Shown here: piece by piece, positions 1-5,684 of the stretch | Layout of the letters: every line of letters begins with the position of its first letter | Position numbering within the stretch: the first letter of the stretch is position 1 | IMG/VR virus record: IMGVR_UViG_2693429642_000007 | Location: 1-5,684 of that record | Reading direction: 5' to 3' (one strand) | Length of the DNA stretch: 5,684 bases | From: a virus | Lineage: Duplodnaviria; Heunggongvirae; Uroviricota; Caudoviricetes | Position numbers and translations under genes: made by a program | The notes under the pieces: generated by a model | Databases searched by the model: none | Told to the model about the DNA's origin: nothing | The model's input: the letters and a program-made list of their open reading frames with translations, nothing else

Positions 1-2
1 AG

Positions 3-218
3 ATACAGCGCGTATACGATGAAAATCACAAGGTATACGGTGTGCGTAAAGTCTGGCGTCAGTTGTTACGGGAAGGAATCAGGGTGGCCAGATGTACAGT
101 GGCACGTCTCATGGCGGTTATGGGACTTGCCGGTGTTCTCCGGGGTAAAAAGGTCCGTACGACCATCAGCCGGAAAGCCGTTGCCGCAGGCGACCGCGTA
201 AACCGTCAGTTCGTGGCC
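3..218 (+). mobile_element. Truncated IS3-family transposase OrfB fragment (N-terminal region only; enters from left edge, similarity ends near 218)
   Basis: Frame-3 translation from position 3 reads IQRVYDENHKVYGVRKVWRQLLREGIRVARCTVARLMAVMGLAGVLRGKKVRTTISRKAVAAGDRVNRQFVA, which fits the conserved N-terminal pattern of IS3-family OrfB transposases (YG.RK.W..L.REGI.V.R..V.RLM...GL.G..RGK...TT). After codon 216-218 the translation (SFAYTMVARS...) no longer resembles transposase, where I would expect the catalytic-domain continuation. No terminal inverted repeat is visible in the window. The listed ORF 42..341 is this fragment read through into unrelated sequence. Confidence 0.55.
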
Positions 219-505
219 TCATTCGCGTACACAATGGTCGCTCGCTCCAGATTGCGTCTGTATTCTTTCTGCTGCCAGATCACGTCCTGTGCCATGAACT
301 TAACTGGCTTAGCGTCTTCTATGCGCTCAGGCGTTTCGTGAGTACCTTTAGCCTGAATCTGCGCTCTGCTTAGAGTAGGGCGGTGTAATACTTCTGAACT
401 TATTGCTTCTTCGCGGGCCAGTACGCCGTTAGCTAATGCCTTTACCTTTAAACGCTCACGACGACGAGAACGTGAATTGCCTTTGAACTGAGTTCTGCGT
501 GTCAT
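206..505 (-). CDS. N: N-like transcription antitermination protein (99 aa), with arginine-rich motif near the N-terminus
   Basis: ORF MTRRTQFKGNSRSRRRERLKVKALANGVL... has an arginine-rich motif at residues ~9-25 resembling the boxB-binding ARM of lambdoid N proteins (P22 N type, GNAKTRRHERRRK, from memory). Size is N-like (~100 aa). AGGAGG lies 5 nt upstream of the ATG (plus-strand cctcct at 511-516). It sits downstream of a boxB hairpin and the candidate pL, in the position of N in lambda. The last ~4 codons and the stop (206-218) lie inside the IS-derived sequence. Confidence 0.6.
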   Translation of the reverse strand: MTRRTQFKGNSRSRRRERLKVKALANGVLAREEAISSEVLHRPTLSRAQIQAKGTHETPERIEDAKPVKFMAQDVIWQQKEYRRNLERATIVYANEATN

Positions 506-670
506 ATAGACCTCCTGATGAACTTTGGTGGTGTGGTAGGTGGGAGACCCATTTCGACCTGTTTCGGCCTACTTCAATTCGGCAATAGTCCCGCAGGCCT
601 CGCCGCTTTACGTGCGACATATTCCCGTCCATGAACCCTTCACCACACCCCAAAGTTCACTTTGGTTATT

Positions 671-685
671 GCGCTTTGTCAGCGC
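671..685 (-). promoter_or_regulatory. nutL boxB RNA hairpin (GCGCU-GACAA-AGCGC on the leftward transcript)
   Basis: Plus strand reads GCGCTTTGTCAGCGC, so the minus-strand transcript reads GCGCUGACAAAGCGC: a 5-bp stem with a GACAA pentaloop, matching my recollection of the P22-type boxB. It lies ~165 nt upstream of the N start and ~60 nt downstream of the candidate pL start. A convincing boxA was not found. Confidence 0.55.
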
Positions 686-753
686 CGTAGATTCATATTC
701 GAATCGTTGTATATTCACCGCCCTGGTGAGTAGTGCGTCCTGCTGATGGGTGA

Positions 754-797
754 ACTTTATCGGAATGATAAATTAATGGCAATAGCAAAATGATAAA
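754..797 (-). promoter_or_regulatory. Candidate pL promoter with OL operators (17-bp palindromic sites, consensus TTTATC-N5-GATAAA)
   Basis: On the minus strand: -35 TTGCCA (plus 777-782), 17-nt spacer, -10 TAAAGT (plus 754-759). A perfect palindromic 17-mer TTTATCGGAATGATAAA (756-772) overlaps the spacer and -10. A second site AATAGCAAAATGATAAA (781-797) lies just upstream of the -35. The layout is identical to the pR/OR1 arrangement at 3252-3280. A possible weaker third site is at 853-869. Confidence 0.45.
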
Positions 798-973
798 TTC
801 TCTTGGTTTTCAAATATCGTATTGATTCTTATGGTGTTTTATTTTGTTGTAGGAATTCGACAGGATAAATAAAGAGATTTGAGGGAGATCTGGATTGCGT
901 TGTTTAGCAAGTTGTATCTATCAGTTTTTCAATAAATACAATCGATTATGTGTTTTTAGGTGGGCGAACGTGG

Positions 974-1002
974 GGCAAAGAAAACCCGGCGCTGAGGCCG
1001 GG
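974..1002 (-). terminator. Rho-independent terminator ending the leftward cI-higB-higA-secB operon
   Basis: Inverted repeat CCCGGC-gctgag-GCCGGG at 985-1002. On the minus strand the hairpin is followed by TTTTCTTTG (plus-strand A-rich 976-984). It lies 10 nt downstream of the secB-like stop codon (1012-1014). Confidence 0.5.
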
Positions 1003-1011
1003 TGGGGAATT

Positions 1012-1416
1012 TCACTTATTACTGTTCGTTTCCATGGGATTGGCCAAGAAATCAAAATAAGGCAGAGTGAACCTACCAAGGTTTGACATGAGGATAATTT
1101 GCTCGGCATATGTTTTTATATAGGGATATGCCATATTGGGAGCAATGGACCTTACCTCATATGATTTTGCCATTTCATGAGAAAAATCATCTTCTGACCG
1201 GAAGTCAAAGTCGTATGTGATGTCCATCTCAAGCCTGCCTTCAATAGTTACGGAGGCAAAATATCTCACTCTAAATAGCTTTGAATCCTTCACATTAGTG
1301 TAAAGTTCATTATTTAGATTAACGGTTGTTTTTATGGATTTTTTTGCTGTTGAATCGCCTTCTAGCCGTGTCATAACCAAGCGTTCAACTTTTTTGCTAA
1401 TGAGTTCAATTTTCAT
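1012..1416 (-). CDS. SecB-like chaperone (134 aa), third gene of a toxin-antitoxin-chaperone (TAC) module
   Basis: The C-terminal half ...SIAPNMAYPYIKTYAEQIILMSNLGRFTLPYFDFLANP aligns by eye with E. coli SecB ...[36 protein letters not shown] (PN..[FY]PY.[RK]....G.F..L.L...FD). The N-terminal region has a beta-strand-like pattern comparable to SecB. Its start ATG (1414-1416) overlaps the stop of the upstream antitoxin gene as ATGA, indicating translational coupling. Confidence 0.65.
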   Translation of the reverse strand: MKIELISKKVERLVMTRLEGDSTAKKSIKTTVNLNNELYTNVKDSKLFRVRYFASVTIEGRLEMDITYDFDFRSEDDFSHEMAKSYEVRSIAPNMAYPYIKTYAEQIILMSNLGRFTLPYFDFLANPMETNSNK

Positions 1417-2069
1417 GGTAATAATAAGTAATTTCCGTCAGAAGTCATTTCGTCATTCAGGTTGCTAGCCGCTGTGAAACTTGATGACAAGTTACTTATC
1501 AAAGAAAAAACATTCCGTTTTTCTTTGCATTTGCCGTTACCCCTTACTGCGCTGAACAACATTTTTGAAAAGTAAGATTCTGTAGCCTTTTCAGCGAAAT
1601 AAGCAGAAGGTGATGTGACGGCTGACTCACACCGAGCAATGACGCTAGTCATGGCTGTTTCTTCTTCCTCTGCGTCAACTAGGCTCCATTCAATTGCGCT
1701 CATATCTTGAATTAAGATATCTGCAGGAATTCCAAGTCCGTCATGTAGTCTACGGATCATTGAAAGACTTAATGGACGCTTACGATTTAAGACCTCAGAT
1801 ACTTTAGATGCTGAGCCAATGTATTGTTTCATATCGGCATAAGAGAGGCCTTGTTGATCCATACGGAACTTGATTGCTTCTATGGGATCTGGCTTGTCCA
1901 TAGGGAACTCGCGTGACTCATAGTGCTCGATAAGCAAGCCTAGTAGTTCAAACTCATCAAAATCTTCAGTTCCAGGTTGTAAATCACTAGACGCAAGTTC
2001 AATGAGCCTTTCCATAGCTGCAGCATGCTCTTCACTATTTTTAATGATGCGCCAGCTAGTTCGATTCAT
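1413..2069 (-). CDS. higA: HigA-like HTH antitoxin (218 aa) with ~95-aa C-terminal extension (candidate chaperone-addiction region)
   Basis: Residues ~1-120 (...EAIKFRMDQQGLSYADMKQYIGSASKVSEVLNRKRPLSLSMIRRLHDGLGIPADILIQD) resemble E. coli HigA/YgjM-type antitoxins (HTH_XRE near the C-terminus of the conserved part). Canonical HigA ends about there, whereas this ORF continues ~95 aa (acidic linker DAEEEETAM, then a Ser/Phe-rich tail). Its start overlaps the higB stop as ATGA (2066-2069) and its stop overlaps the secB-like start as ATGA. Confidence 0.7.
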   Translation of the reverse strand: MNRTSWRIIKNSEEHAAAMERLIELASSDLQPGTEDFDEFELLGLLIEHYESREFPMDKPDPIEAIKFRMDQQGLSYADMKQYIGSASKVSEVLNRKRPLSLSMIRRLHDGLGIPADILIQDMSAIEWSLVDAEEEETAMTSVIARCESAVTSPSAYFAEKATESYFSKMLFSAVRGNGKCKEKRNVFSLISNLSSSFTAASNLNDEMTSDGNYLLLP

Positions 2070-2353
2070 TTAAGCCTCCACTTGTCGTACTCTGCATGAG
2101 TTCCAACTCTTTCAACTATGACCATTCCTGCCTGGTAAACAACTTGGACAACGAGCCGATAGTTATTGCCTTTTATATTAAAAATTACCCTGTTGTTAGG
2201 AAGGAAGTCGGCAGAATTAAATCTATTCCGTATGTCTTGAGTCGTTTTCCAGTTTTCTCTTATCACTTCATCATACCAAGAGTCTAAAGCCCCCTTGGCC
2301 TGATTGTGCTTCTGGCTAAAACTGTGAAGCTTCTCTACGTTTAAGACCTTCAT
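2066..2353 (-). CDS. higB: HigB-like toxin (RelE/ParE superfamily mRNA interferase, 95 aa)
   Basis: MKVLNVEKLHSFSQKHNQAKGALDSWYDEVIRENWKTTQDIRNRFNSADFLPNNRVIFNIKGNNYRLVVQVVYQAGMVIVERVGTHAEYDKWRLK aligns by eye along its length with E. coli HigB (YgjN): ...FNVGGNELRVVAMVFF...IREVMTHKEYD. The toxin-first gene order is typical of higBA. Confidence 0.75.
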   Translation of the reverse strand: MKVLNVEKLHSFSQKHNQAKGALDSWYDEVIRENWKTTQDIRNRFNSADFLPNNRVIFNIKGNNYRLVVQVVYQAGMVIVERVGTHAEYDKWRLK

Positions 2354-2375
2354 AATCCGATTTTGTTCCCTCTTT

Positions 2376-2407
2376 GGGAATTATAGATTCATTTCCCATA
2401 AAGGGAA
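2376..2407 (-). promoter_or_regulatory. Candidate internal promoter/operator for the higB-higA-secB module
   Basis: A perfect TATAAT on the minus strand (plus-strand attata at 2380-2385) lies ~27 nt upstream of the higB ATG. The -35 is poor. A perfect inverted repeat TTCCC-ATAAA-GGGAA (2393-2407) sits adjacent, with a further GGGAA half-site at 2376-2380; this is a plausible antitoxin operator. Confidence 0.3.
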
Positions 2408-2489
2408 TCTGTATTTTTATCCAGAAATGCTATGTACATCACCCAAACGTCTCTTCAGGCCACTGGTTACCAGCTATGTGACGATGAAG

Positions 2490-3194
2490 TCACGAACTTT
2501 TCAGCCACTCCCTTGCCTCGATGTCATCCAGATGGCGAGATTGCTTCAGAATACCAGCTACATACTCCACCTTTGCTACTTGATGATAAGGCAACGTTAT
2601 AGGCCTGTGATCCTGGTTAATGCTTGTAAATTGGTATTCTCCATCTCTGTCATAGCCAAGAACCTTAATCATGTTGTGTCCTTCAACGGTTCTGACAAAC
2701 ACCTCATCACCCGGGAATACTTTGGTGTTAGGCTCAATGAGTACATATTCTCCTGATTTTATTCTGGGCCACATGCTGTCTCCTTTCACACGAAGACCAA
2801 AGGCATCTGGATCATCGCTATAAATTTTGAGCCACCCATCGCGCTCTTCGGTCATCTCGATGGCACCATCAACACCAAGAATTGCCTCACCAACCACGCG
2901 CACTAACCCTTTTCTTACCTGACCGACAAAAGTTAAAGAATCTGAGAATGATGCAATTGGTGTTACATCATGTACCAAATCAAGCCACCCATTAGGTAAC
3001 CCAAGCGCGGCTTCAAATTTTCTTGCTAGTTTATCCCCTATGTTTCGAGTGCTTTTTTCACCGGAGACTTGCGTGAGTTGAGAAGGGCTAACCCCAAGCT
3101 TATCGGCAAAGCTTGCATTAGTGTTACCCGCGATTTTTTTATGCTCATCTAGCAAAAACGCCAGATTCGATTTGCGAATATCTTTGTTTTCCAT
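2490..3194 (-). CDS. cI: CI-type prophage repressor (N-terminal HTH, C-terminal S24/LexA-like peptidase domain; 234 aa)
   Basis: The N-terminus has an HTH (...FADKLGVSPSQLTQVSGEK...). The C-terminal domain has the S24 signature GDSMWP (Ser nucleophile) and a Lys ~37 residues later (MIKVLG). It is divergently arranged from the cro-like gene across an operator-rich intergenic region. A GAGGG RBS lies upstream of the ATG. Confidence 0.85.
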   Translation of the reverse strand: MENKDIRKSNLAFLLDEHKKIAGNTNASFADKLGVSPSQLTQVSGEKSTRNIGDKLARKFEAALGLPNGWLDLVHDVTPIASFSDSLTFVGQVRKGLVRVVGEAILGVDGAIEMTEERDGWLKIYSDDPDAFGLRVKGDSMWPRIKSGEYVLIEPNTKVFPGDEVFVRTVEGHNMIKVLGYDRDGEYQFTSINQDHRPITLPYHQVAKVEYVAGILKQSRHLDDIEAREWLKSS

Positions 3195-3307
3195 CTCACA
3201 ATTTTCCCTCTATTTAGCAAATGGATAAATACGCAATATGATAAATTTACATTGCGGTTGATTTATCAAAATGGTAAAGTTGTTCTGTGTGATAAACGGA
3301 GGCACTA
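3195..3307. promoter_or_regulatory. Immunity switch region: OR operators with divergent pRM (leftward) and pR (rightward)
   Basis: Repeated 17-mers share the GATAAA / TTTATC half-site: TTTAGCAAATGGATAAA (3213-3229), ATACGCAATATGATAAA (3229-3245, weak left half) and TTTATCAAAATGGTAAA (3263-3279). Candidate pR: -35 TTGCGG (3252-3257), 17-nt spacer, -10 TAAAGT (3275-3280), with the operator overlapping the -10 exactly as at pL. The cro RBS GGAGG is at 3298-3302. The pRM hexamers could not be placed confidently. Confidence 0.5.
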
Positions 3308-3541
3308 ATGAGTAATGAACTACTACGCTGGCGAAAAGAGGCTTCTAGCGAGGAATGGAAGCGACTCGCCGCATTAGCGAAAACTTCAGTTGGCTATCTT
3401 GACCAGATTGCATATGGATTTCGAAGAGCTTCCCCTGATAAAGCGAATGCAATCGAAGAAGCTACTCGTAATTTCACGGGTTATAAACCTGTGAAAAAGG
3501 AAAACCTAGTGTTCGTATCGCGTAGAGCATCGGCTGCATAA
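3308..3541 (+). CDS. cro: Cro-like small HTH regulator (77 aa), first gene of the rightward early operon
   Basis: Called by position: divergent from cI, immediately downstream of the OR/pR candidate, with GGAGG 5 nt upstream of the ATG. The protein is small and basic with an HTH-like stretch (LAALAKTSVGYLDQIAYG). It does not resemble lambda or P22 Cro from memory, so family assignment is uncertain. Confidence 0.55.
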   Translation: MSNELLRWRKEASSEEWKRLAALAKTSVGYLDQIAYGFRRASPDKANAIEEATRNFTGYKPVKKENLVFVSRRASAA

Positions 3542-3548
3542 GTAACAC

Positions 3549-3594
3549 CGCTATTTTCACAATGGACATTCGTCCTACGTCGCTGACAAAGCGA
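3549..3594 (+). promoter_or_regulatory. nutR: boxB hairpin UCGCU-GACAA-AGCGA (3580-3594) with a possible boxA-like CGCTATTT (3549-3556)
   Basis: TCGCTGACAAAGCGA has a 5-bp stem and the same GACAA loop as the nutL boxB at 671-685. It lies just downstream of the cro stop, as nutR does in lambdoid phages. The boxA assignment is weak: one mismatch to CGCTCTTT and an unusually long 24-nt spacer. Confidence 0.5.
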
Positions 3595-3623
3595 GTCCCA
3601 ATATATCTGACCAACTAAGGCCA

Positions 3624-3641
3624 TATGCGTTTCCACGCATA
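3624..3641 (+). terminator. Hairpin between cro and cII (possible tR1-like pause or terminator structure)
   Basis: TATGCGT-ttcc-ACGCATA is a perfect 7-bp stem with a 4-nt loop, followed by CCTTTCAAC, which is only weakly U-rich. tR1 is rho-dependent in lambda, so function is uncertain. Confidence 0.2.
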
Positions 3642-3679
3642 CCTTTCAACTAACTATTCACTATTGGAAATATTAAGAA

Positions 3680-4045
3680 ATGACACAAACAAGTTACAGC
3701 AAACTATCACAGCGTGACGTTGATCGCGCAGAAACAGATTTACTCATCAACCTATCAACGCTTACCCAGCGCGGTCTGGCAAAGATGATTGGCTGTCATG
3801 AATCGAAGATAAGCAGAACGGACTGGAGACTTACCCAGCGCGGTCTGGCAAAGATGATTGGCTGTCATGAATCGAAGATAAGCAGAACGGACTGGAGATT
3901 TATTGCTTCGGTCTTGTGTGCTTTCGGAATGGCATCAGACATCAGTCCGATTAGCAGGGCTTTTAAGTATGCGCTTGCTGAAATCACAAAGAAAAAACGC
4001 CCGGCGGCAACCGAGCGTTCTGAACAAATCCAGATGGAATTCTGA
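3680..4045 (+). CDS. cII: CII-like lysogeny-establishment activator (121 aa) containing an internal 23-aa tandem duplication
   Basis: The C-terminus ...[17 protein letters not shown] matches the lambda CII C-terminus as I recall it. The N-terminal and HTH regions are divergent from lambda. Without the duplication the length would be 98 aa, against 97 for lambda CII. Position after cro and nutR is as expected. Confidence 0.8.
3761..3898 (+). repeat. Perfect 69-bp direct tandem duplication (2 copies: 3761-3829 and 3830-3898) inside cII, in frame
   Basis: Both copies read cttacccagcgcggtctggcaaagatgattggctgtcatgaatcgaagataagcagaacggactggaga with no mismatch (checked base by base). This duplicates the peptide [23 protein letters not shown]. 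Confidence 0.95.
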
Positions 4046-4067
4046 GGGAATTACTGGATCAATCCAC
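3991..4067 (-). ncRNA. oop: OOP-like antisense RNA (candidate), with its terminator hairpin at 3998-4017 inside the cII 3' end
   Basis: On the minus strand CGCUCGG-UUGCCG-CCGGGCG (7-bp stem with one G-U) is followed by UUUUUU (plus-strand A run 3992-3997). This matches the lambda oop terminator arrangement, which is antisense to the cII 3' end. A CATAAT -10 on the minus strand (plus 4075-4080, overlapping the ATG at 4078) sits where lambda pO lies, but the -35 is poor. The 5' end is inferred by analogy only. Confidence 0.35.
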
Positions 4068-4077
4068 AGGAGTAATT

Positions 4078-4224
4078 ATGACAAAACAACTCAGTCCTTA
4101 CCAGGACAAAATTCACAAACACATACTACGTGATCGCTTCCTGTCCAGCTTCAAGCAGCCTGGTCGATTCCGGGCTGGGTTGGAAAAAGTGAAGCTGATG
4201 CAGAAGGAGAAAGGTCATGAGTAA
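4078..4224 (+). CDS. Small hypothetical protein (48 aa, basic) between cII and O
   Basis: ATG at 4078 is preceded by AGGAG (4068-4072) with 5-nt spacing. It reads [48 protein letters not shown], with stop TAA at 4222-4224 overlapping the O start by 8 nt. It is absent from the supplied ORF track, presumably because it is below the length cutoff. The start context matches the lambda O start region (caggagt.attATGACAAA) as I recall it. Confidence 0.35.
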
Positions 4225-5122
4225 TCTTGCAACCGTAACACATTTAAGGCCTTCACAACGGCCTGTGGAGCGTCGTGTGGCAGAAGTTGAAGATGGTTAT
4301 ACCCGTCTTGCAAATGCCCTGTATGAAGAGCTTATCGGCGCAGATTTAACGAAAAATCAGAGCAAGGTTGCCCACGCCATATGCCGTAAAACATACGGCT
4401 ACGGTAAAAAGATGGATCGCATCTCTGATAGTCAGTTAGCTCAAATTACCAGGCTGCCAAGACAGAAGGTAAACAAGGCCAAGAATGAGCTTATCGCGAT
4501 GAAGGTTATCCTTCGCGAAGGCCAGCAAATCGGGCCTAACAAGAACATCGAGGAATGGCAAATCGAAGGGTGTCACTACTCTGGTGATAATGTCACTGCA
4601 TTGGTGACAAAAAGTGTCACCAAAACGGTGACAGCGCTGTCACCAAAACAGGGACACACAAAAGAAACTATTACAAAAGAAAAAAGAAAAGATTATTCGT
4701 CCGAGAATTCTGGCGAATCCTCTGACCAGCCAGAAAACGATCTTTCTGTGGTTAAACCGGATGCTGCAATTCAGAGCGGCAGCAAGTGGGGAACAGCAGA
4801 AGACCTGACCGCCGCAGAGTGGATGTTTGACATGGTGAAGACCATCGCACCATCAGCCAGAAAACCGAATTTTGCAGGGTGGGCTAACGATATCCGCCTG
4901 ATGCGTGAACGTGACGGACGTAACCACCGCGATATGTGTGTGCTTTTCCGCTGGGCCTGCCAGGACAACTTCTGGTCCGGTAACGTGCTGAGTCCGGCCA
5001 AACTCCGCGACAAGTGGACCCAGCTCGAAATCAACCGTAACAAGCAACAGGCAGGCGTGACAGCCAGCAAACCAAAACCCGACCTGACAAACACTGACTG
5101 GATTTACGGGGTGGATTTATGA
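4217..5122 (+). CDS. O: O-like replication initiator protein (301 aa); divergent N-terminal iteron-binding domain, lambda-like C-terminal domain
   Basis: The N-terminus aligns with lambda O (..EDGYTRLAN.. vs ..DDGYARLSN.., GADLTK, RKTYG, MDRI.DSQL, GPNKNI.EW). The C-terminal ~110 aa ([101 protein letters not shown]) is essentially the lambda O C-terminus from memory. RBS AAGGAGAAAGG precedes the ATG. The stop overlaps the P start as ATGA. Confidence 0.9.
4571..4698. promoter_or_regulatory. Origin of replication within O: four 19-bp iterons (TGTCAC-N7-GTGACA type) followed by an AT-rich region
   Basis: Iterons are tgtcactactctggtgata (4571-4589), tgtcactgcattggtgaca (4591-4609), tgtcaccaaaacggtgaca (4615-4633) and tgtcaccaaaacagggaca (4638-4656). 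An AT-rich tract aaaagaaactattacaaaagaaaaaagaaaagattatt (~4657-4698) follows. This is the same architecture as the lambda ori (four iterons plus AT-rich region inside O), but with a different iteron sequence from the lambda TCCCTC...GAGGGA type. Confidence 0.7.
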
Positions 5123-5684
5123 AAAACATCGCCGCACAGATGGTTAACTTTGACCGTGAGCAGATGCGTCGGATCGCCAACAACATGCCGGAACAGTACG
5201 ACGAAAAGCCGCAGGTACAACAGGTAGCGCAGATCATCAACGGTGTGTTCAGCCAGTTACTGGCAACTTTCCCGGCGAGTCTGGCTAACCGGGACCAGAA
5301 CGAACTGAATGAAATCCGCCGCCAGTGGGTTCTGGCTTTCCGGGAAAACGGGATCACCTCGATGGAACAGGTTAACGCAGGAATGCGCGTAGCCCGTCGG
5401 CAGAATCGACCATTTCTTCCATCACCCGGGCAGTTTGTTGCATGGTGCCGGGAAGAAGCATCCGTTATCGCCGAACTGCCAAACGTCAGCGAGCTGGTTG
5501 ATATGGTTTACGAGTATTACCGGAAGCGTGGCCTGTATCCGGATGCAGAGTCTTATCCGTGGAAATCAAACGCGCACTACTGGCTGGTTACCAACCTGTA
5601 CCAGAACATGCGGGCCAATGCGCTGACTGACGCGGAATTACGGCGCAAGGCTGCCGATGAACTGACCTGTATGATAGCACGAAT
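5119..5684 (+). CDS. P: P-like replication protein (DnaB helicase loader), 5' partial: continues beyond the window end
   Basis: The ATG at 5119 overlaps the O stop. The translation [115 protein letters not shown]... closely matches lambda P as I recall it. The frame stays open to the window end (no stop), which is why it is missing from the ORF track. Confidence 0.9.
   Translation, partial: MKNIAAQMVNFDREQMRRIANNMPEQYDEKPQVQQVAQIINGVFSQLLATFPASLANRDQNELNEIRRQWVLAFRENGITSMEQVNAGMRVARRQNRPFLPSPGQFVAWCREEASVIAELPNVSELVDMVYEYYRKRGLYPDAESYPWKSNAHYWLVTNLYQNMRANALTDAELRRKAADELTCMIAR

Follow-up and report, generated by a model that had tools for sequence, protein, structure and literature searches.

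The window analysed here is a stretch of 5,684 nucleotides (5.7 kb; positions 1 to 5,684 of the IMG/VR record IMGVR_UViG_2693429642_000007) that covers the immunity region of a lambdoid prophage together with its early-replication genes. Its immunity type is that of H-19B, BP-4795 and ST2-8624, i.e. a Shiga toxin (Stx) phage type. The minus strand carries, in this order, the repressor gene cI, the genes higB, higA and higC, a Rho-independent terminator, the operator and promoter region OL/pL and a truncated N (Table 1). An earlier note on this DNA had listed cI, higB, higA, a SecB-like gene, the terminator and OL/pL in the same order and orientation, and each of them was found at or near the positions given there. 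It had also proposed that the three genes after cI are a moron or defence cassette in the slot that corresponds to rexAB of phage lambda. This proposal holds up well, as the genes are nearly identical to the HigBAC system of Escherichia coli NT1F31, which has been placed in a variable locus downstream of cI, where lambda has rexAB (Mets et al. 2024, bioRxiv 10.1101/2024.02.24.581848). We are confident that positions 1004-2438 are a mobile HigBAC toxin-antitoxin-chaperone (TAC) cassette, located in the hypervariable slot for cargo that an H-19B-type prophage has between cI and OL/pL, in the rexAB position.

The cassette is this already published anti-phage system, and in that sense the finding is already known: the system, its mechanism and its rexAB-equivalent placement are all in Mets et al. 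2024. The variability between cI and N was noted earlier (Owen et al. 2021, PMC8585504; Degnan et al. 2007, as cited there). What the sequence comparisons add are sharp limits for the cassette, a terminator that belongs to the phage backbone, a putative promoter/operator module inside the cassette, and a base composition that does not discriminate the cassette from its neighbours.

The HigBAC genes and their relatives

Over the TAC block the DNA is 99.5% identical to the NT1F31 locus. The encoded proteins differ from HigB, HigA and HigC of that strain (WP_112844290, WP_112844289 and WP_112844288, the same accessions as in Mets et al. 2024) by two, one and one residues, respectively: the window has Q14 and I31 in HigB where NT1F31 has R14 and R31, R185 in HigA where NT1F31 has Q, and S27 in HigC where NT1F31 has T. 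The two loci also share the gene order, the protein lengths of 95, 218 and 134 aa, the type of cI, the position between cI and OL/N, the 85 nucleotides upstream and the terminator downstream. The prophages around them are different. That of NT1F31 has another N, another O and a DnaB-type replication module, whereas in the window N is truncated, cII carries a duplication and the replication genes are O/P.

HigB matches the Pfam family HigB_toxin (PF09907) with E=4.5e-30 and 104 bits, against a cut-off of 27, and the PADLOC model PD-Lambda-2_A with E=2.2e-42. HigA is made up of an N-terminal HigA/Xre helix-turn-helix (HTH) part, of about residues 1-121, and a C-terminal extension, residues 122-218. 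Residues 5-127 match the HigA-like part of the PADLOC model PD-Lambda-2_B (E=3.8e-50), the Pfam HTH_3 model reaches 20.9 bits, which is under its cut-off of 23, and residues 122-218 have no domain match in Pfam or PADLOC. A tail of about 96 residues beyond the HTH part, without a domain match, is as expected of a chaperone-addiction (ChAD) extension, and this one has the aromatic residues W128, F158 and F188 at a spacing of 30 residues.

By sequence, HigC has no Pfam match even at E-values of up to 10, and searches of the PDB with single-sequence phmmer or a 20-sequence profile gave no match to SecB. It matches, over its full length and with E=2.8e-11, the PADLOC model PD-T4-9_C, which is CmdC, the SecB-like chaperone of CmdTAC. 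An AlphaFold model of HigC, built on 20 homologues (predicted local distance difference test, pLDDT, 86; predicted template modelling score, pTM, 0.78), was compared to known structures with Foldseek. The top matches were the SecB-like chaperone Rv1957 of Mycobacterium tuberculosis with a bound ChAD peptide (5mtw, TM 0.73) and the SecB proteins of E. coli and Haemophilus influenzae (1qyn and 1fx3, TM 0.72-0.76, the higher value for 1qyn), the best match having E=6.5e-7. Where the sequence searches for SecB failed, it is because of the CmdC match and the predicted SecB fold that we assign the third gene; on this modelled structure it is a SecB-like chaperone. NCBIfam holds no model that matches HigB, HigA or HigC.

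The PADLOC matches of HigB and HigA given above are the strongest ones for these two genes, and they would suggest that the locus is not a TAC and is rather PD-Lambda-2, a system of a HigB-like protein, a fusion of HigA to a peptidase, and a P4-antitoxin-like third gene (component definitions in PMC9519451). This is hardly credible. The match to PD-Lambda-2_B covers only profile positions 3-125 of 402 and the peptidase domain is absent, while the third gene resembles CmdC and has the predicted SecB fold, unlike the P4-antitoxin-like PD-Lambda-2C, and gives no match to PD-Lambda-2_C. We reject membership in PD-Lambda-2 on domain content. All the parts of a TAC are present: a toxin of the HigB family, an antitoxin with a ChAD, a SecB-like third gene and a tight tricistronic layout. 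The higB/higA and higA/higC junctions are each a 4-nucleotide ATGA overlap, the three genes are on one strand, and one terminator follows the third.

Table 1. Positions of the features of the window, with the basis of each assignment
Feature	Position	Strand	Basis
higB, RelE-fold ribosome-dependent mRNA interferase toxin, 95 aa	2066-2353	minus	Pfam PF09907 HigB_toxin
higA, antitoxin, 218 aa	1413-2069	minus	N-terminal part of PADLOC PD-Lambda-2_B
higC, predicted SecB-like TAC chaperone and phage sensor, 134 aa	1012-1416	minus	PADLOC CmdC model and predicted fold
Putative cassette-borne promoter/operator module	2366-2407	minus	inverted repeats, promoter match, cross-genus conservation
Rho-independent terminator of the unit of cI and cargo	974-1003	minus	consensus scan and folding
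51-nucleotide post-cI segment, upstream edge of the slot, kept with most other cargos	2439-2489	minus	alignment diverges exactly at 2438/2439
cI repressor, 234 aa, HTH and S24 autocleavage domain, H-19B immunity type	2490-3194	minus	Peptidase_S24, E=3.8e-16
OL1, OL2, OL3	756-772, 781-797, 813-829	minus	annotation transferred from GenBank GQ499358, offset +598
pL, TTGCCA-17-TAAAGT	-35 782-777, -10 759-754	minus	promoter scan
Truncated N	206-505	minus	open reading frame (ORF)
OR	3214-3297	plus	
cro	3308-3541	plus	
cII	3680-4045	plus	
DUF2740 ORF (48 aa)	4078-4224	plus	
O (301 aa), then start of P (partial)	downstream of the DUF2740 ORF	plus	

The TAC of M. tuberculosis (Rv1955 HigB1, Rv1956 HigA1 and Rv1957) has the same architecture of HigB, HigA and a SecB-like protein, an antitoxin with a ChAD, and a chaperone with the SecB fold that is the top structural match to HigC (5mtw). 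It differs in that it is chromosomal and stress-linked and not borne by a prophage, and the chaperones are just 16-17% identical. Another relative is CmdTAC (PD-T4-9; E. coli ECOR22, O112ab:H26), likewise an anti-phage TAC and with a homologous SecB-like chaperone. However, its toxin is an mRNA ADP-ribosyltransferase, its antitoxin is unrelated, and it targets T-even phages and not lambda-like siphoviruses.

The experiments on the NT1F31 system are those of Mets et al. 2024. In that work HigBA is toxic unless HigC is co-expressed, HigB blocks translation, and the ChAD is HigA 122-218, the removal of which makes HigA independent of the chaperone. HigBAC protects against lambda-vir and Bas25, and escape mutants carry the change S54P in gpV. 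This tail protein is what is sensed, with gpV and the ChAD competing for the same pockets of HigC. The ChAD of HigBAC is more than twice as long as that of M. tuberculosis, and HigA is inactivated without reliance on ClpXP. The window has all of N41, R49 and D71, the HigC residues probed by Mets et al., and it also has the ChAD at 122-218, F188 and the aromatic residues spaced by 30.

By analogy with this published system, chaperone dependence, toxicity and gpV sensing may be carried over to the alleles of the window. HigB would be an RNase toxin that blocks translation, and HigA would neutralise it, with a ChAD tail of about 96 residues that should be unstable unless held by a tetramer of the SecB-like HigC. 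On infection with a sensitive siphovirus the major tail protein (gpV in lambda) would compete with the ChAD for the aromatic-binding pockets of HigC. HigA would then be lost and HigB freed, and translation would stop before the phage cycle is completed. Translation of higB, higA and higC would be coupled via the ATGA overlaps.

A variant of HigBAC in E. coli CUVM3 is 95% identical to that of the window (locus 3509-4850 versus window 1012-2353). The differences in HigA, 14 in number, are confined to the ChAD (139-218) and leave the N-terminal part unchanged, while HigC has 16 differences and HigB three. This distribution suggests that the sensor pair, i.e. the ChAD and the chaperone, diverges as a unit with the toxin and antitoxin core fixed, which may reflect the exchange of modules or diversifying selection on phage sensing.

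Over positions 700-3320 the window shares 99.1% identity with the Stx phages H-19B, BP-4795 and ST2-8624 and with Stx1 and Stx2 prophages of O157, O26 and O103 strains. In RefSeq, the HigC of the Stx1 and Stx2 prophages in such strains is a 'hypothetical protein' and HigA is mostly a 'helix-turn-helix domain-containing protein', e.g. in strain 86-24 (locus 914-1971). These labels in the prophages of Shiga toxin-producing E. coli (STEC) could be improved. The presence of HigBAC in STEC prophages may have an effect on phage susceptibility, and on superinfection among Stx phages. Long-tailed Stx1 phages that carry HigBAC would have to avoid triggering it with their own tail protein on induction.

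Exchange of cargo in the slot after cI

We compared the window with 13 sampled loci, 14 sequences in all, and used a pattern search with the anchors ...GTTTGGGTGA and CCCGGCCTCAGYGCCGGGTTTT. In pairwise BLAST and alignments, 1003/1004 is where the homology to the window breaks off, and it restarts at 2438/2439, which sets the cassette, as far as sequence homology defines it, at 1004-2438. A 48-nucleotide post-cI anchor is found in 12 of the 14 sequences, and the terminator in all 14. Between the common junction and the common terminator lie nine different cargos, with sizes of 745-2087 bp and GC contents of 37-43%, and every cargo seen runs in the orientation of cI.

A full-length cI gene is carried by 216 complete E. 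coli genomes, and 88 have the TAC. The latter figure corresponds to about 1.6% of the 5426 complete E. coli genomes, and most of these copies are in STEC prophages. Behind cI genes of 98-99.9% DNA identity we found three alternatives: DUF3024 with two ORFs, two small ORFs, and a Clp-fold protease of the SDH family. Strain 2013C-3342, which belongs to this group with other cargo, has the very cI protein that accompanies HigBAC in 86-24 and CUVM3. Where a repressor has just the C-terminal half in common with this cI, it is followed by a 933W-type cluster of DUF3024 and stk, by DUF6932 and an ORF, by a 299-aa ORF, by an ORF and DUF1828, or by two ORFs. The earlier note had called for a comparison of the interval between cI and OL in related prophages, which might have revealed a conserved core arrangement. 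The same cI is found with other cargo, so HigBAC is not a conserved core arrangement here.

HigBAC can also be found behind other repressors. In prophages of Klebsiella, Citrobacter and Pantoea, homologues with HigC identities of 50-85% come immediately after unrelated S24 repressors. The homologue in Serratia has a different context, where it is not adjacent to cI or a repressor gene.

The segment between cI and the cassette, 2439-2489, was considered as a possible structured element, with one compensatory-looking change in NT1F31 (CUGG..CCAG to CUGA..UCAG). This candidate was dropped, as other loci have uncompensated changes and the segment is missing or shortened in two of them. From the alignments, a block of homology that ends there is the best reading of the segment.

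In lambda the cI-rexA-rexB operon ends at the terminator tIMM, and rexAB are exclusion genes expressed in the lysogen. The likeness of the HigBAC cassette to rexA-rexB lies in the place between cI and OL/pL, the orientation with cI, the terminator behind (tIMM in lambda) and a role in abortive infection or exclusion in the lysogen. There is no relation in sequence or mechanism. RexAB is a sensor with a membrane ion channel, whereas HigBAC would combine an RNase toxin with an antitoxin and a SecB-like sensor, and would have an operator-flanked promoter of its own. The stk cluster of phage 933W has the same slot, orientation, post-cI junction and terminator as the window cassette, and bstA of phage BTP1 is also downstream of cI and presumed to share the cI promoter (PMC8585504). 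In both cases the proteins and mechanisms are unrelated to HigBAC. The same synteny argument was made for BstA by Owen et al. 2021 (PMC8585504), who cite Degnan et al. 2007 for the region between cI and N as a hotspot of mosaic diversity.

A different view of the cassette is that the TAC is mainly an addiction or stabilisation module, which makes loss of the prophage costly, or one for stress or persistence, as was proposed at first for the TAC of M. tuberculosis, with phage defence as a side effect. Rts1 is where HigBA was discovered, as a locus that stabilises this plasmid; the first descriptions of TACs were of stress-responsive modules (PMC3581621); and the cassette is intact in a prophage that is apparently defective. 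That said, we regard this as improbable for the main role. The protection by the NT1F31 system from lambda-vir and Bas25 is direct and specific, and the escape mutations are in the very tail protein that is sensed. Genes for abortive infection and exclusion, rexAB and BstA among them, are known from this slot (PMC8585504), and the same cI is found with many cargos, so a prophage can be kept without the cassette. HigBAC may have a part in addiction or stress as an additional function; it is not the best explanation.

The alternative cargos are all AT-rich. Among them are clusters headed by DUF3024, some of which contain the 933W stk kinase, the SDH-family Clp-fold serine protease, the DUF6932 pair and the DUF1828 pair. 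Most of them are uncharacterised, and we consider these to be candidate defence genes expressed in the lysogen. The sharp limits of the slot are a simple pair of anchors with which more cargo of this kind (DUF3024, DUF6932, DUF1828, SDH protease) can be mined for candidate defence genes.

Terminator, promoter/operator module and expression

The clean Rho-independent terminator that the earlier note had placed at 974-1002 was recovered, with its stem on the minus strand at 1003-984 and a tail behind it. The stem has seven pairs, of which six are G-C, a loop of 6 nucleotides and the tail UUUUCUUUG / TTTTCTTTG, and the hairpin has a predicted energy of -14.4 kcal/mol (z = -2.1 versus shuffles). 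Nine different cargos are followed by this element, with no change in its stem, and on this distribution the terminator belongs to the phage backbone and not to the cassette. That cI and the cassette share a downstream terminator had been claimed before, and a terminator common to every cargo is the strongest available support for this claim. By analogy with lambda, it would be the functional equivalent of tIMM.

There is also agreement on the gap between cI and higB, where no terminator had been evident. In these 136 nucleotides (2354-2489) the consensus scan found no minus-strand terminator and folding gave no hairpin with a U-run behind it; the sole T-rich 8-mer sits inside a palindrome. 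Nor is there a terminator-like site in the gaps between repressor and higB of Klebsiella and Citrobacter. The DUF3024 variants have their first cargo ATG 10 nucleotides past the conserved junction, with only GGAGG before it. With an ATG this close to the junction there is no room for a cargo promoter, and the slot is evidently read from upstream.

The earlier note had not described a promoter or operator of the cassette itself. Inside the 85 cassette nucleotides upstream of higB lie two palindromes with identical arms, TTCCC-N5-GGGAA. A weak -35 box, TTCCCT, is overlapped by the distal one, TTCCCTTTATGGGAA (2407-2393); the -10 box, TATAAT, is at 2385-2380 and the proximal palindrome, TTCCCAAAGAGGGAA, at 2380-2366. 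With a spacing of 16 nucleotides, the promoter match is 9 of 12 positions overall. The pattern TTCCCNNNNNGGGAA has two matches in the window, versus none in 200 shuffles. Across the cassettes of E. coli, Klebsiella, Citrobacter, Serratia and Pantoea, the TATAAT box and the arms of the proximal palindrome are invariant, and five of six sequences have the distal palindrome too, while the spacers of the palindromes, the leader and the upstream flank diverge. The Serratia copy, which has no repressor gene beside it, keeps the module as well. An antitoxin-autoregulated promoter with flanking operators is the standard layout in toxin-antitoxin (TA) systems of type II, whose operons are classically autoregulated. 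The two palindromes in the window are probable HigA operators, judging by their position and conservation.

Expression of the cassette is, on these sequence features, most likely dual. One source of transcripts would be read-through of the cI transcripts from pRM and pRE, which we propose because nothing terminator-like stands between cI and higB. The other would be the TATAAT promoter of the cassette, bracketed by the two palindromes that HigA probably binds. Both transcripts would end at the backbone terminator at 1003-974, which may shield OL/pL. Co-transcription with cI need not be the sole or main route of expression.

An alternative is that the cassette is transcriptionally autonomous, with its own HigA-autoregulated promoter as the only source, a co-orientation with cI that has no regulatory meaning and a slot that is just a tolerated insertion site. 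A perfect TATAAT between two conserved palindromes, a Serratia copy that keeps the module away from cI, and the classical autoregulation of type II TA operons would all fit. We think it unlikely, given that neither the 136-nucleotide gap nor its Klebsiella and Citrobacter equivalents have a terminator-like site, that sibling cargos start 10 nucleotides past the junction with only a Shine–Dalgarno sequence, and that all cargos are co-oriented with cI. We return to dual expression, for which a more elaborate form can be tentatively suggested. In such a nested control, read-through from pRM would tie basal HigBAC to lysogeny, and the HigA-operated promoter would buffer the ratio of toxin to antitoxin and sustain the system after cI cleavage. 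The slot would then be a plug-in socket between fixed recombination anchors, open to cargos with a promoter (HigBAC) or without one (DUF3024/stk). This is a possibility that we do not favour strongly.

Several observations weigh against the reading of the locus as a mobile, dually expressed HigBAC cassette. The -35 box matches at three of six positions, and a generic promoter scan of the window did not call this site. The case for a transcript shared with cI and for an active internal promoter is built on sequence features. HigB of the window carries the substitutions Q14 and I31, where R14 is found in NT1F31, CUVM3 and ST2-8624, and R31 in NT1F31 and CUVM3, and the full toxicity of this allele is not a given. 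The host prophage looks defective, with a truncated N and a duplication in cII, and selection on this copy cannot be assumed.

Base composition belongs with these points. By eye, the TAC block had looked more AT-rich than the O/P replication module, and it is, with a GC content of 40.1% versus 49.1% for O, 54.1% for the partial P and 51.1% for the two together. As an argument for a cassette this is weak, as cI (44.4%) and cro (44.9%) are nearly as AT-rich and the OR region is at 32.7%. The GC content at third codon positions overlaps as well (0.36-0.46 in the TAC genes, 0.40 in cI and 0.33 in cro). What stands apart from the replication genes in composition is the immunity region as a whole, and not the cassette from cI, and we rejected composition as a sign of foreign origin.

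Surroundings of the cassette in the window

The candidate OL/pL that had been suggested at about 754-797 matches the operators annotated in GQ499358, a record that is 99% identical, and a promoter-like site at 782-754. The OL operators have TATCA/TGATA half-sites in common. The cI gene is annotated in the H-19B and ST2-8624 records, which are 98-99% identical to the window. A scan of the whole window with Rfam gave no family at or above its gathering score.

Homology to the H-19B type of N ends at position 218 (junction 217/218), and the ORF in the window has 99 aa versus 127 aa for N of H-19B. On the plus strand, upstream of 218, there is an internal fragment of a transposase of the IS3 family of insertion sequences (HTH_21, E=2e-9; NCBIfam transpos_IS3, positions 153-213). 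A rearrangement associated with this insertion sequence has removed about 32 C-terminal codons of the antiterminator N, and with the loss of these codons the prophage is probably defective. The junction 217/218 is absent from all the complete E. coli genomes searched, and the best matches among them span 218-5684 at 98.4% identity.

In cII there is a near-perfect tandem duplication of 69 bp at 3761-3902 (2.1 copies, 98% matches), which repeats 23 residues spanning the HTH. The encoded protein has 121 aa, versus 98 aa in H-19B, ST2-8624 and all other loci examined.

The 5′ part of the replication module (window 4078-4644) is unlike H-19B and ST2-8624, and DNA homology to the O of H-19B restarts only at 4644. 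This divergence is ordinary lambdoid mosaicism. A similar layout of DUF2740 and replication protein is found in E. coli CUVM3.

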